From Malacoraja senta (Eukaryota), in assembly GCA_038087875.1 (NCBI GenBank), contig CM075989.1, forward strand, positions 17,796,001-17,856,000: 60,000 nucleotides of DNA. The letters run 5' to 3'. Numbering within the stretch: position 1 is the stretch's first letter; each line of letters opens with the position of its first letter. A program made the translations under genes and the position numbers. This document shows positions 16,200-52,546 of this stretch, piece after piece. The notes beneath the pieces were generated by a model. That model searched no databases and was not told where the DNA came from. It saw only the letters and a list, made by a program, of their open reading frames with translations.

Positions 16200-17400
16200 G
16201 GGGTCCATGCATGGCATTGCTCGGCGCTCTCCGGCCACTTCCACACCCCGCACTTCCATTCCTGTCTAGATCCTTCTATCCCTATCTACGCCTGCAGGTA
16301 GAAGGCCCAGCGCGCCCACACTTGCTCACAGAGGCCACGCCGGGACAGAGTGTAGACCCCGGGTGCAGACAGACAGTGCCAGTGAACACGCAGTGAGAGT
16401 GGGGATGGGATCCAGTGCAGGATTGCAGGGCCGGAGAGGCTCGGGGACTGATAGCAACGCCGACCACCGCTCTCCCGTTTCATCCAAAATAACCCGCTGA
16501 CTGCACCTGCTCTGTCGCCCGCTCTCCAGGGACCCGGTATTAATAGCTCACTGGCTGGGCCGTGGCCACGGCTCCCCACAGACCCTGTCTGTCCCCCTGG
16601 ACATTGGCCGCGGGGTGAGTCACTGTCCCGGGGCTCCGAAACACAGTGCGCTCCTTTCTCCAGGACCTCCCGCCGGTACCGGGGAGAGACGCATCGTGTA
16701 ACCGGTACCGGGGAGAGACGCATCGTGTAACCGGTACAGGGGAGAGACGCATCGTGTAGCCGGTACCGGGAGGTAGCCACACCGTGCAGCCAGTAACGAG
16801 GGTGTAACCGGTACCGGGGAGAGACGCACCGTGCAGCCAGTAACGGGGGTGTAACCGGTACCGGGAGGTAGCCACAACGTGTAGCCAGTAACGAGGGTGT
16901 AACCGGTACCGGGAGGTAGCCACACCGTGCAGCCAGTAACGAGGGTGTAACCGGTACCGGGTGAGCGCGGCGCCATGCAGCCGGTGCCGGGCTCGGTGCG
17001 GCTGAAGGTGGAGCAGCGGGTGTTCACGGTGGGCCGGCTGGAGCTGAGCGAGGGCAGCGACTATTTCAGGGCACTGTTCGCGTCGGGCATGCGGGAGAGC
17101 GGCCAGGAGGAGATGGTGCTGCCGCTGCTGGCAGCCCGGGGCTTCGCCCTGACCTTGCGGGTCCTGGCGGGCGAGCGGCCGGCTGTGAGCGGCGAGGAGG
17201 AGATCGGCGAGGCGGCCGAGTGCGCGGCTTTCCTCCAGGCCAGGCTCCTGACCCAGCACCTGGTCCATTGCATCAGCCCCGGCAACTGCGCGCTGATGCT
17301 GCAGGCCGCCGCCGTGTATGGGCTCCCCGAGCTGCTCCACGCCTCGGCACACTTCATCAGGGACCTGCATCCCGATGTACGGCAGGAGCTGAGCTACCTG
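16200..17400. promoter_or_regulatory. CpG island over the KBTBD13 5' region
   Basis: High GC and CpG density; MCAT-like cattcct near 16257; AT-rich tattaata at 16538; possible splice acceptor ctcctttctccAG at 16663. Confidence 0.6.
16673..16990 (+). repeat. Minisatellite of 29-30 and 47-48 bp units, each opened by the palindrome CCGGTACCGG
   Basis: Palindrome starts at 16673, 16702, 16731 (variant), 16760, 16808, 16855, 16903, 16951 and, degenerate, 16981. Confidence 0.9.
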
Positions 17401-18351
17401 GCCCAGGATCAACTGGACTACATCGAATCCCTGCCCCCCAGCACACTGGTGGCCGTGACCACCCACTCCCCCTCTCCCCAACACCCCCACGACCACTCCA
17501 GGACCATCTGCTACCTGGACGAGGCGGACAATGTGTGGAGAGATCTGACCTGGTTGCCCGAGATGGCCAGCACATCCCTCGCCGGCATCGCAGTCATGGA
17601 CAACAAAATCTACATCGTGGGTGGAGTGGATGGCGTGAGCAAGCGGGTGGTGCCCACTAACTTCTGCTACGATGCGGACAGGGACAGCTGGAGCGAGTTT
17701 CCTTGCGGGCAATACCTTCGCCACAACGTGGCTCTGAGCGGCCAGGACGGCTGTCTCTTTGCCATCGGTGGCGTGTACAAGGGTAAGGTGGTGGCCACCG
17801 TGGAGAGGTTTCACGTCGCCTCCAACTCTTGGTCCTCGGTTGCCCAGCTGCCCAGACCCGGGGAAGGGGTGGCGTGCACTCGAGCGATGGGCCGAACGTT
17901 CGTGTGTCTCTGGTTCCCCATGGAGACCACGGACATTTACGAGTACGGGACCCGGGGGGACGAGTGGTCTCTGGTGACCACGCTCAGGCGCCAGCAGAGC
18001 TACGGCCACTGCATGGTGTCCCACGTAGACAACCTGTACGTGATGAGAAACGGGCCAGCCGACGACTTTCTGAGATGCTTCATAGATTGTTACAACCTGA
18101 CCAGGGACCAGTGGAGCAGCCTCTCCGGGTATTATGTCAACAGTAAAGGGGCACTTTTCACAGCCACAGTCAGAGGCGACCGGGTGTTTACAGTCAACAG
18201 AATGTTGACTCTGGTCTACGATATCCAGGGGGACCGCTGGAAGCCGGCAAAGGAAGCGGCTGGCTTCCCTCGGAGTGGCTCCATGCACAGCTTCTTACTC
18301 CGGCTCCCGAAGAGGCGACTTGCTACCCGCCACACGACTATGAATGAATGA
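16975..18351 (+). CDS. KBTBD13: Kelch repeat and BTB domain-containing protein 13 (Cul3 adaptor, muscle), intronless CDS, 458 aa
   Basis: BTB motif SDYFRALFASGMRES; kelch repeats (IYIVGG, LFAIGG); HCMVSHVDNLYVMRNGPADDFLRC and VNSKGALFT...VFTVNR; gccATG after an in-frame TAA at 16948; syntenic position. Confidence 0.93.
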   Translation: MQPVPGSVRLKVEQRVFTVGRLELSEGSDYFRALFASGMRESGQEEMVLPLLAARGFALTLRVLAGERPAVSGEEEIGEAAECAAFLQARLLTQHLVHCISPGNCALMLQAAAVYGLPELLHASAHFIRDLHPDVRQELSYLAQDQLDYIESLPPSTLVAVTTHSPSPQHPHDHSRTICYLDEADNVWRDLTWLPEMASTSLAGIAVMDNKIYIVGGVDGVSKRVVPTNFCYDADRDSWSEFPCGQYLRHNVALSGQDGCLFAIGGVYKGKVVATVERFHVASNSWSSVAQLPRPGEGVACTRAMGRTFVCLWFPMETTDIYEYGTRGDEWSLVTTLRRQQSYGHCMVSHVDNLYVMRNGPADDFLRCFIDCYNLTRDQWSSLSGYYVNSKGALFTATVRGDRVFTVNRMLTLVYDIQGDRWKPAKEAAGFPRSGSMHSFLLRLPKRRLATRHTTMNE

Positions 18352-24190: not shown

Positions 24191-25028
24191 TGATGTGCCG
24201 ATTGGGAGTGAATAACGTGTATGCTGTTGGACTCAGCACTCAAATTCCTCTGAGGAACACCAGCCTGATATGATCTGTAACTTTTAGCAGCAGAAATTGA
24301 GTTGTGGCAAACCATCAATGAAACACTGTGGCTCCCTACAATGAGTGTAGGTCGGGGTGGAATCATTCTTTCCATGGCTGCATTTCTTTCTAATTTAAAA
24401 CATGATGGCAAGTTAAGATGAGAACTGTTACATAAAGGAACACCTTGATAAACATCTTAAGAAACAACTCCGCCATGCAGTATGCCTTTTATAATAATTA
24501 CCAGTAACATCATTAATAGCTGCTCGATTTATTGTGGTGAATTTTGGCCAGTTATTTTGATATCTGGAGTTAAAAATAACATCTGCAATATTTTGTAAAG
24601 TATTTATTTAACCTGTGTTTTTTCAGAGCTACGTTCAAATTTATATTTCCCCTTTCTTGTTCGTTTTAATCAATTTTTTTAAATTGCACAGGTTTCTCCT
24701 TCATTTCACCTTCTCCAATAAAGGTTGTGAGGAGTTGTCAGACCACGTTGTACAGGGCTTCACAGAGTGGCAGCCACAGCCGACTAATCTATACCCACAG
24801 ACCCGTTACCTTCCACAAGTTGATCACCTCCAGATTCAGGGACAGTTTCTTCCCAGCTGTTATCAGGCAACTGAACCATCTTATCACCAACTAGAGAGCA
24901 GTCCTGAGCTACTATCTACCTAATTGGAGACCCTCAGACTCTTTCGAATTGGACTTTATTGGACTTTATCTTGCACAAAATGTTATTCCCTTTATCCTGT
25001 ATCCGTGTTCCCTGGACGGATCGATTGT

Positions 25029-25169
25029 CTTCTTCTTCTTGCGTATGGCGTGCACAGCCTAAAGTTGTAGGACAACTTGTTCTATTTGATCTTATTTGAT
25101 TGTGCACACCAGGTTGATTGCATTCGTCGAAACAGGGCGGACCACGTGAAGGTTGCAATCTCCCACCCC
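25029..25169 (-). mobile_element. 141-bp ribozyme-headed short retroposon with an (AAG)n tail, nested in a Rex1/Babar-like fragment
   Basis: 11-bp TSD ggatcgattgt at 25018-25028 and 25170-25180; 3' tail aagaagaag on the minus strand. Confidence 0.85.
25116..25169 (-). ncRNA. Minimal HDV-like (CPEB3-type) self-cleaving ribozyme, 54 nt
   Basis: GGGGUGG-GA-GAUUGCA-ACC-UUCACGU-GGU-CCGCCCU-GUUUCGA-CGAA-UGCAAUC: P1 7 bp with G1.U, P2 7 bp, P3 3 bp, L3 UUCACGU, J4/2 CGAA. Confidence 0.85.
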
Positions 25170-27281
25170 GGATCGATTGTAATCAACATGAATAGTCTTT
25201 CTGCTGACTGGATTAGCACACACCAAAAAAAGCTTTTCACTGTACCTCAGTACACAGTACACGTGACAATAAACTAAACTAAATTGAAAAGTTATACTGT
25301 ATATAGGCCAGACGGTTCTGACACTGGAACCCATGGAAGTCAATAGACAATAGACAATATGCAGGAGTAGTCTACACATCAACCCTTGAGATTTCCATTC
25401 TTTAGTGAGATAGCAATGGCAAGATATTCGAAGCACTAAGCTCAGGAAGATGGATCCTGTCACTGATCCATGTTCTCCAGAGATGCTGCCTGACACGCTG
25501 AGTTACTCCAGTACTTTGTGGCTTTTTTTGTAAAGCAGCATCTGCAGTTCCTCATGTCCAGGCTCAGGGAATCACACACCTGTCCGAGGATGCTAAATAT
25601 TCTGGAAGACATCCCTGAATTGTTACGCTGTCTCCCCGTGAGGCATTTCAACATTGTTCCCCACAGCAGACAGTTTTCTCTCAGTTTACATCGTGATCTT
25701 GCGCTGGTCTACTCGCCCAGTCCCTGAGCCCTGGTTTTTGGTGAGCCCCATCCATGGGGCCTGGGCCCACACCTGATCTTCGTGCAGAGTTATTCCCCTT
25801 TTGAATTGGCAAGATGTGCCTTCACGCATCCTTCCCATGCTACACGATCACAACATGGTAGATGCATTCAGATTTCATGGTAGGATATCACATGCAAGCG
25901 CAGGCTTCATTGAATATCCGGAGATGAGGGAGCCATCTTCAACTTACAAACTTCTCAAAATTCCACTGACACTTTGGTTTTCCTTACATCAAGAACTCAA
26001 AATGCATCGTCTGGAGTTGATTTCCCATTGAATGCTTTCTTGTGTCAGAATGGAATGATTACAACATTGTGGAATACCACAAAGAGTTTATTACCAACCT
26101 TTCCAAAGTGCTCGTGCCTGTCTGAAGGGTTAGAGACCCTTGGATGTAATTCTTTATAGCTCCCATGATAGACACAAAAAGCTGGAGTAACTCAGCGGGT
26201 CAGGCAGCATTTCTGGAAAAATATCACTCATTCCTTTTCTCCAGAGATGCTGCCTGACCAGCCGAGTTACTCCAGCTTTTTGTGTCTATCTTTGGTGTAA
26301 AACCAGCATCCACAGTTCCTTCCTACACTCTTTATAGCTCCTGTTCAGTTAAGCGTCTGAAGGCCAATCATTATAATCAAATGGAATTGCACTTTATCTG
26401 CAGTTACTGAAGGTCACGTCTGCATGGTTAGAGTTCCCGGTCATTTGGCACGGGTTTAGAGCAGGAAGAGTCAGCTGATTTCACCAGGGAACGCCGACAC
26501 AGCCTGCCACAGTATGGAGCCATTATTTATCTTGCACAGTCGGGGTTAAAGCACTTTCCCCAGCCGCAGAGCCGCACCACCAGTAAATGTATCTGCATCC
26601 AATTACCGAGGGATTGAGATTCAAGATTCAAGAGAGTTTATTGTCATGTGTCCCTGATAGGACATTGAAATTCTTGCTTTGCTTTTGCACACCAGAACAT
26701 AGTAGGCACGAACACAGAACAGATCAGTGTGTCCATACACCATTAAATAAATATATACACACATGAATAAATAAACTGATAAAGTGCAAATAAACAGATA
26801 ATGGGCTATTAATGTTCAGAGTTTTGTCCGAGCCGAGTTTAATAGCCTGATGGCTGTTGGGAAGTAGCTATTCCTGAACGTTCACTGCACGACAAGGCAG
26901 TTGGTAATAAAGTTCCCAGATTATTTTCATCCTGTGGGAAACGGTGCCTGCGAAACTGCCGTCATCACAGCCGGTGCAAAGGGGTTTGAACTTTCCCTAC
27001 TGGAGATCTATAAACAGAAGGGCTTTGATTTCAAAGCTTTACACTCCACACTCAAGGTTTGTTTTTCTAAATGGGGCTGTGTTTCCCTCATCACTGGGCA
27101 ACATCAAGGTCCAAAAGTCCTTCTGCTGAATGTTTGAGAAAGATGTCTGCAAATAATTTATAAATCTCACCACTGCACAGAGTAATGCAATGTGCAGCAC
27201 TGGGAAGCCGCAGTATGGAGAGTTGGACTGAACACTGCATCAATAATGTTTATATAAGCACTGTAAATCTGAATTTCCAGT

Positions 27282-51766: not shown

Positions 51767-52546
51767 TTTTTTCTACTTTTGTTTTTGTTTTTTAGTGTGT
51801 CTTAATGTGTGTTTTTAATGTCTCTCTGTGTGTCTTGTGTGGGGGGTGGTGTGGGGGGGTAAGGGGGAAACCGTTTCGGTCGCCTCCTCCACGGAGAGGC
51901 GACTTTTTCCATGTCGCCTCCCCTGTGGCCTAACATCGAGGATCAGTGCGGCCTTTCCCGGAGACGCGCCTGGGGCTTCAGCAGCGGGCGCAGCGAGGAC
52001 GCTTTCGTCGCGGAGCGGGCGAGCCCTCGCCAGAGGAGAGTGCTCCATTAGCTGGCCCGCGGCAGCCTGAAGCCGCAGTCTGCGGAGCTCCAGTTGGCGC
52101 GGCGTCCAGAGCCTGGGATCCCTCGCCGGGGATCCCTGGAGAGGAGCTCCGACCGCCGGCCCTGCAGTCTGCGGTGCTTCTTGTTGCAGCGCGGCGGGAC
52201 TTTAAATCTTCGACCGCCAGCCTGCGGCCTACACCAACTTGTAGCCGCGGTCTCCGGTGGGGAGGCACCGATTCAGGACTTACCTGGACTTTACCTTGTC
52301 TGAACATCTGGACGGCCGCAGCGGCGGCTGCGGAGGGTTGTGGTCCCGACCAGGGGGGAAAATGGTGGAGGACTGGCCAAATTTCGTGCCTTCCACCACA
52401 GTGATGAATGCTGTGGTGGATGTTTGTGTTCAATTTTTATTGTGTATTGTGTGTTCTTTTAAAAAAAAATTGTACCGCTGCTGGCTTTGAATTTTCCTGA
52501 AAAGGGATTAATAAAGTATTTATCTATCTATCTAACTATCTATCTA
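51767..52546 (+). mobile_element. GC-rich non-autonomous retroelement with an (ATCT)n tail, nested in a Penelope-derived repeat
   Basis: Ends gggattaataaagtatttatctatctatc; the host repeat continues on both sides (compare the intact version at 59500-59640); related 3' end at about 5540-5665(-). Confidence 0.6.

Follow-up and report, generated by a model that had tools for sequence, protein, structure and literature searches.

Location and composition of the element

The window, i.e. the whole 60,000-nt stretch analysed here, belongs to a eukaryotic genome of 1.94 Gb and carries on its minus strand a 141-nt element (25169–25029), which by inspection of the sequence is flanked by an 11-bp target-site duplication (TSD; 25170–25180 and 25018–25028). 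An earlier sequence-only reading had given these coordinates, the 11-bp TSD, the (AAG)4 tail and a set of helices, and all of them, including every helix it named, are present in the sequence. The features, numbered from the first nucleotide of the element (G1), are as follows.

25170..25180, minus strand: 5′ copy of the TSD, 11 bp, abutting G1 directly
25116..25169, minus strand: 54-nt ribozyme fold of the HDV/CPEB3 type lacking P4, with the predicted cut between 25170 and 25169 (descriptor, covariation, covariance model)
25163..25169, minus strand: 5′ strand of P1, G1 to G7, pairing with 25134–25140 (positions 30–36), with wobbles G1·U36 and U5·G32 (descriptor)
25154..25160, minus strand: 5′ strand of P2, positions 10–16, pairing with 25116–25122 (48–54), with a 2-nt J1/2 ahead of it (descriptor, covariation)
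25141..25153, minus strand: P3-L3-P3′, ACC / UUCACGU / GGU (P3 positions 17–19 with 27–29), including U20, C22 and G25
25127..25133, minus strand: J1/4 (GU) and a 5-nt loop where P4 would stand; a G37-C22 pair, equal to P1.1, is possible
25123..25126, minus strand: J4/2, C-G-A-A, with the putative catalytic C44 at 25126
25046..25111, minus strand: 3′ body, an 11-bp stem around a 7-bp hairpin, a putative recognition signal for the partner reverse transcriptase (RT) (predicted fold)
25029..25045, minus strand: terminal ATACG-C, then (AAG)4 (sequence; tails in the family have 1–7 units)
25018..25028, minus strand: 3′ copy of the TSD (sequence)

The element sits in an older repeat of high copy number (window 24850–25290), within its 3′ part; other copies of this repeat run across the insertion site without the element. 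Loose contig ends contain the host repeat with a single copy of a motif similar to the TSD; no empty site was seen among the loci examined. Elsewhere in the window, a single open frame of 466 aa (16951–18351, plus strand) encodes BTB and Kelch domains and looks like an intronless kelch-like gene. A family of short palindromic repeats is represented by more than 20 copies between 756 and 59679, together with several families resembling SINEs and with CR1-like fragments.

The element has no open reading frame, and its variable TSD, microsatellite tail and many copies are those of a non-autonomous LINE or SIDE. The earlier statement that tRNA-like A and B boxes are absent agrees with our scan: no tRNA is predicted in the window, the best A-box match in the element has two mismatches, and the best B-box matches have one mismatch (at +79) and two mismatches (at +10 and +38). 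A SINE in the strict sense is read by polymerase III and is headed by a tRNA, 7SL or 5S sequence containing A/B boxes; the element has no such head. By the definition given in PMC4494074, elements of this kind are non-autonomous LINEs, not SINEs, the label used earlier.

Ribozyme fold of the 5′ part

We confirm that the first 54 nt fit the fold of an HDV/CPEB3-type ribozyme without P4. They comprise a 7-bp P1 with the G1 wobble, P2, a 3-bp P3 and a 7-nt L3 in the order of the nested pseudoknot, a C as the first base of J4/2 followed by N-A-A, and both U20 and G25. The putative catalytic C placed earlier at 25126 is element position 44, the first one in J4/2. The earlier description of P4 as reduced to GUUUCGA holds for the letters, which are present, but not for the helix: a better reading divides this segment into J1/4 (GU) and a loop of 5 nt and leaves no P4. 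P1.1 would be a single pair (C22-G37), as in CPEB3; it is invariant, and hence has no support from covariation. Some features weigh against the explanation favoured below. J1/2 is only 2 nt long in the element, though also in the ribozyme of the Vingi-type LINE described below; for another HDV-like ribozyme, a J1/2 of 0–1 nt was reported to give little or no activity, and that of 3–7 nt, slow activity (PMC4908430). A possible competing 2-bp hairpin, GU-UUCG-AC, could occupy C44.

The only match of a generic HDV descriptor in the window starts at 25169, and 9 Mb of dinucleotide-matched simulated sequence (150 sequences of 60 kb, both strands) contain no match. A covariance model constructed from five other loci, with the element excluded, gives its top match at 25169–25116, with exact ends (31.3 bits, roughly calibrated E = 4.8e-7); the runner-up in the window (51855–51910, plus strand; 15.6 bits, E = 0.024) has no conserved L3 and probably is a chance match. 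The Infernal search with the Rfam HDV and CPEB3 models, which the sequence-only reading had named as a check, left the element unmatched: no ribozyme match for it was found in the Rfam search of the window and the locus, the RF00622 (CPEB3_ribozyme) threshold of 35 bits not being reached. Nested-only folding is ordinary (z = +0.9 for the 54-mer and −0.9 for the 141-mer), as is expected because the structure is a pseudoknot. For the last 87 nt, the predicted fold is the stem with an inner hairpin (z = −3.3; 1 of 200 shuffles as good), in agreement with the 11-bp stem enclosing a 7-bp hairpin proposed earlier; both arms of the stem contain the palindrome GTGCAC.

Copies of the element in the genome

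At least 4,963 places match a 35-letter ribozyme pattern with four CpGs left free, compared to none for the reversed pattern; this number is a lower bound that may count haplotype duplicates, as were 2 of the 20 fetched loci. The best 40 of 1,011 candidates are 99–100% identical to the window copy. Among 48 distinct copies, 42 align from G1, which is what the sequence-only reading had expected of a genome-wide comparison. A TSD of 9–13 bp lies within 2 nt of G1 in 42 of the 48 (10–12 bp in 37 of these; mismatched-flank control, 0 of 30), the base at position −1 is a pyrimidine in 39 of the 48, and the tails are mostly (AAG)3–5. As 30 of these copies had been selected for their full-length likeness, a fairer test is provided by the other 18, selected by the 3′ body alone. 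All 18, each of them distinct, have the ribozyme part, which starts at position 1 in 12 copies, at position 2 in three and at positions 4–7 in three, and no common upstream sequence was found among them.

The TSDs and the tails show repeated retroposition of a fixed 141-nt unit from the predicted scissile position. The earlier claim that the predicted cut site coincides with the element boundary stands, as copies begin at G1, and the data support a non-autonomous retroposon whose 5′ boundary is at the predicted ribozyme cut site. The HDV descriptor is still satisfied by only 27 of the 50 copies examined. The full-length element was also found in runs labelled with six organisms, ten rows of which may be the source of the window DNA. 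In runs labelled as two other organisms, contigs (36 and 274) diverge at 25169 into unrelated flanks (agreement 0.38 and 0.35, respectively). Run X20, with fewer than 5 words, was left out of the evidence.

A version of the element core with a long P4 has one match in the genome, rejected since it is a local duplication inside an ordinary copy. A 3′ query of 72 nt gave no matches and was uninformative, while the 87-nt query did find copies.

In other copies of the element, the TTA of the body that corresponds to 25060–25062 is an insertion hotspot for inverted-repeat MITEs of 0.2–0.6 kb with TTA duplications (L117–L127), with about five internal sequence groups in nine complete cases; we take these MITEs to be PIF/Harbinger-like.

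A Vingi-type LINE with a related ribozyme

Searching the genome for the core of the element with a genuine P4 added yielded a second family at eight loci, and the lone locus L138. The family begins at its own G1, is approximately 3.14 kb long and has one APE-RT reading frame (with two stops in the copy analysed), in which endonuclease and RT domains and a C-terminal Cys/His motif are present and RNase H is not matched. Its copies (loci L130–L137 and L139–L144, e.g. G000:C1:153860781-153863920, plus strand) are 96–99% identical to one another. By eye, the 5′ end closely resembles those of Vingi-2_Gav (3,128 bp), Vingi-4_Crp, Vingi-2_SPur and Vingi-1_BF (supplement of PMC5786205), and Vingi elements have a single ORF and no RNase H (PMC13708176). 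From the 5′ likeness, the single ORF and the lack of RNase H, we call the family a putative Vingi-type LINE.

The 5′ part of the element is homologous to the ribozyme of this LINE in architecture and core. At the other end, five of six LINE copies terminate in ACACG-AAAAG(AAG)n, and the element in ATACG-C(AAG)n, so that the terminal AYACG motif is common to both; Nimb-like and RTE-like ends have no such motif. TSDs were seen in four of six LINE copies (11, 11, 11 and 12–15 bp), but neither the TSD length nor the (AAG)n tail discriminates between candidates, as a Nimb-like family has both. Apart from the short terminal motif, the element body has no stretch in common with the Vingi-type LINE; thus, a simple internal deletion of that family does not account for the element, whose direct parent would be missing, extinct or a sister family outside the searched set. 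A Vingi family seems a reasonably probable partner.

Covariation and constraint

In the alignment of the element, four copies of the Vingi-type LINE and the lone locus L138, both partners differ in 10 of the 18 pairs, and pairing is kept in 96% of the cells; none of 500 shuffles reaches this, and slid controls give 37–50%. The sequence-only reading had proposed covariation in P1 and P2 among genomic copies as a check; compensatory changes are observed in P1, P2 and P3 relative to other ribozymes of the same genome. These changes come from three independent sequences only, and may go back to ancestral LINEs. The columns without change are the top of P1, the entire L3 (identical in the element, the LINE and L138), G37-U38, C44, A46 and A47, whereas the stems differ. 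The catalytic positions U20, G25, C44, A46 and A47 were retained while the stems turned over.

Compared to the LINE ribozyme, the element has a gap of 19 alignment columns at P4, and so does L138. The latter (L138:62-115; G000:C6:4190987, plus strand) is a lone P4-less ribozyme-like sequence whose P3 is of the Vingi type and whose P2 is peculiar to it; its loop is as long as that of the element (5 nt), and it scores 31.5 bits against RF00622. Thus, the P4-less form is present in at least two lineages of this genome, and L138 may head a second short family.

Variation within the family was assessed by eye in 100 listed rows of the 4,963. The common variants are G32A (n = 34), which converts U5·G32 of P1 to U5-A32, G45U (n = 30) at the second base of J4/2, and G42A (n = 15) in the loop; they leave every catalytic position intact. 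G45U accounts for 44% and 16% of the depth in runs X1 and X16, respectively. The excess of G-to-A changes could be of mutational origin, and we do not count it as selection. C44 is replaced by T in 5 of the 70 listed copies without T at position 45, compared to 7–9 of 100 for other CpG cytosines (counts by eye from the same 100 rows). Thus, C44 decays like other CpG cytosines, and the inserted copies show no selection.

Other candidate partners

The clade-wise search covered some members of L1-, CR1-, RTE- and Nimb-like families, the clade names being provisional and taken from domain content and characteristic motifs. No LINE carrying the 87-nt body was found by pattern searches that required exact matches and had partial coverage, so that the LINE tail seen in this body by the sequence-only reading is putative. 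The top RVT_1 matches are L1-like (8 loci examined of 150 listed), the DUF6451 matches belong to three RTE-like families (38 loci examined of 150 listed), and the Exo_endo_phos_2 matches belong to two Nimb-like and to CR1-like families; the body was found in none of them. One of the Nimb/I-like LINEs (L098–L101, L103) is very young, with 99.7% identity and many intact 1277-aa frames, and two examined copies lie in related flanking repeats (69–72% alike), hinting at a target preference.

Negated patterns, which detect under half of any divergent family and require an exact terminal match, were applied at both ends. The ribozyme followed by a non-body sequence has 64 matches, nearly all of them indel variants by eye, and the tail preceded by a non-body sequence has 110 matches (100 listed). 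A recurring alternative before the tail looked like a partner, but was rejected, as 9 of the 13 fetched loci are element copies interrupted by MITEs; the remaining four are a MITE end at the same place (two loci), an internal deletion and a 5′-truncated copy.

Discussion

The explanation that we regard as the best, and hold with moderate confidence, is that we are dealing with a short retroposon of LINE type, non-autonomous and of the Vingi/Ingi kind, with a ribozyme-cut 5′ end and copying by a Vingi-type protein. A copy would be transcribed either by read-through from the host DNA or from an internal polymerase II promoter; the promoter-less element of the sequence-only reading is one of these two candidates. 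The P4-less 54-nt ribozyme would cut just ahead of G1, producing a fixed 5′ end of the RNA; self-cleavage at G1, as modelled from the fold and the boundaries, is quite likely. The 3′ end of the element would then be bound by the APE-RT protein of a LINE residing in the same genome, most probably one of a Vingi family. This protein would nick the target next to a short match (A/AG) with the (AAG)n tail and use target-primed reverse transcription to copy the RNA, which leaves a 10–12-bp duplication. As the ribozyme would be copied together with the element, each new copy at a transcribed site could release itself again.

One alternative is a hybrid in which a ribozyme head derived from Vingi/Ingi is joined to a 3′ end that the young Nimb/I-like LINE recognizes, cf. 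the R2/R1 hybrid SIDEs. Nimb-like families end in a stem closed by GGC...GCC a few bases before (AAG)n, which is the architecture of the element body, and a 3′ end in the form of a stem with an inner hairpin is found in a Nimb-like family and not in the Vingi-type LINE. The 99.7%-identical family with intact frames also has TSDs of 11–12 bp (by eye) and is younger than the Vingi-type LINE, and such combinations of head and tail have been described (PMC3414825). The young family is thus a serious rival, but we consider this origin rather unlikely, as beyond the tail the element has no similarity to either Nimb-like 3′ end, and its last bases ahead of the tail are closer to the end of the Vingi-type LINE.

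Further, transcription might be started at G1 by an internal promoter similar to Pr77 of L1Tc/NARTc, the fold serving mainly to protect the end or to bind the LINE protein. Pr77 drives transcription from +1, and its P3/L3 motif shares 12 of 13 letters with that of the element (PMC1874656); HDV folds protect the 5′ ends of templates in engineered R2 systems (PMC13708176); and a start at G1 is expected under the promoter and cleavage models alike. This possibility is improbable given the retention of U20, G25, C44, A46 and A47 despite the turnover of the stems. Moreover, a promoter would not exclude cleavage, as trypanosomes have both together, the equivalent 77 nt of L1Tc being at once a ribozyme and an internal promoter (PMC1874656; PMC3383444).

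Mobilization by an RTE-clade LINE, the partner guessed in the sequence-only reading (as RTE or RTE-X), is very unlikely. RTE elements do have HDV-like ribozymes and bipartite derivatives (PMC5786205), and one RTE-like family of this genome ends in (AAG)n, but this family is older, with copies about 90% identical to each other compared to 99–100% for the youngest copies of the element. The 3′ sequence of the element is shared by neither of the two RTE-like families, out of three, whose 3′ ends were seen (30 and 8 loci), that of the third, a BovB-like one, being interrupted, and the type of the ribozyme points to Vingi/Ingi. Finally, that the fold is a matter of chance or a dead relic, as the lack of an Rfam match and the ordinary folding energy might suggest, is hardly credible given the empty 9-Mb descriptor control, the independent covariance-model match with exact ends (E = 4.8e-7) and the covariation.

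Returning to the explanation by a Vingi-type partner, its general design, a ribozyme plus a tail recognized by a LINE, has been reviewed (PMC6765202; PMC5786205) and has several precedents. R2 SIDEs and R2/R1 hybrid SIDEs of Drosophila are likewise non-coding and combine an HDV-like ribozyme, active in SIDEs, with a 3′ end used in target-primed reverse transcription by a LINE, and in the R2/R1 SIDEs the head and the tail can derive from different LINEs (PMC3414825). By analogy of design, the element may work like a SIDE. However, SIDEs are rDNA-specific and rare and have kept P1 to P4 (PMC3414825), whereas the element is dispersed in thousands of copies, has no P4, and its parent LINE was not found. 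NARTc, RIME and SIDER of trypanosomatids, too, are short, dispersed and non-autonomous, have a LINE of the Ingi group as partner and carry an HDV-like head (PMC4035085, PMC1874656) closely similar to that of the element in P3/L3 (the same 12 of 13 letters). They differ in occurring in protists, in being polyadenylated and in having a 77-nt head with P4 that also is a polymerase II promoter and in NARTc is identical to that of the LINE.

Bipartite derivatives, such as those of Vingi-1_EE and Bov-A, also lack ORFs and keep the LINE 5′ end (PMC5786205, PMC4494074), but they match the parent at both ends, while the element shares with the resident Vingi-type LINE only the ribozyme architecture and the terminal 5-mer. 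According to the available text of these papers, bipartite non-autonomous LINEs come from RTE, Ingi, Vingi and R2 only, and Vingi is not among the six ribozyme-bearing clades listed there.

As to the ribozyme itself, the theta and other minimal HDV-like ribozymes (bioRxiv 10.1101/2023.06.13.544163) similarly have no P4, a short loop, a short J1/2 and the catalytic C first in J4/2, and such ribozymes were shown to be active. They were reported from gut phages with hardly an exception, and frequently next to tRNAs, whereas the element is an animal retroposon with no tRNA in the window; for the screen for minimal ribozymes in human, mouse and protist genomes, the available text of the same preprint reports matches in bacteria only. 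The mammalian CPEB3 ribozyme (RF00622; PMC4836649) coincides with the element in numbering, the core U20, C22 and G25, L3 UUCACGU, CCCU-GU and CGAA-U, and the two features named in the sequence-only reading, the same L3 and the GU after P1, are among these matches. It differs in being single-copy and intronic and in having P4 and other sequences of P2 and P3 (PMC4836649).

Thus, while the design is already known from R2 and R2/R1 SIDEs, NARTc/RIME and Vingi derivatives, the P4-less ribozyme in a high-copy animal element looks new. We found no description of the family in the literature, Repbase and Dfam lying outside this search, and a repeat annotation made without noticing the ribozyme may well exist already.

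The ribozyme of the Vingi-type LINE offers a further lead. Three LINE 5′ ends score 57–61 bits against RF00622, whose gathering score is 35. In the available texts, including some of those mentioning both Vingi and a ribozyme, we found no link between Vingi and CPEB3, and the words "Vingi", "retrotranspos" and "transpos" do not occur in the available text of a study on the evolution of the CPEB3 ribozyme (PMC8233481). From these scores, we infer that a Vingi insertion may have been the origin of the mammalian CPEB3 ribozyme.

A joint reading of all these observations can be offered tentatively, as it is somewhat doubtful in its entirety. An active 54-nt P4-less ribozyme, of a form so far known almost only from phages, would head a promoter-less and protein-less animal retroposon of 141 nt, present in thousands of copies in several related genomes and close to the smallest self-processing mobile RNA; this ribozyme would be derived from the CPEB3-family ribozyme at the Vingi 5′ end, and the CPEB3 ribozyme of mammals would probably go back to a Vingi insertion.

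If true, minimal HDV-like ribozymes would be extended from phages to an animal genome, in thousands of copies, and each copy could in principle cleave host transcripts running through it in the sense orientation. The family is a natural library for mutational analysis of the ribozyme. Vingi proteins are under development for RNA-templated gene insertion (PMC13708176), and the element hints at how small the 5′ and 3′ modules of a Vingi-type template RNA might be. Lastly, since Vingi 5′ ends score as members of the CPEB3 family, the origin of the CPEB3 ribozyme becomes directly testable.
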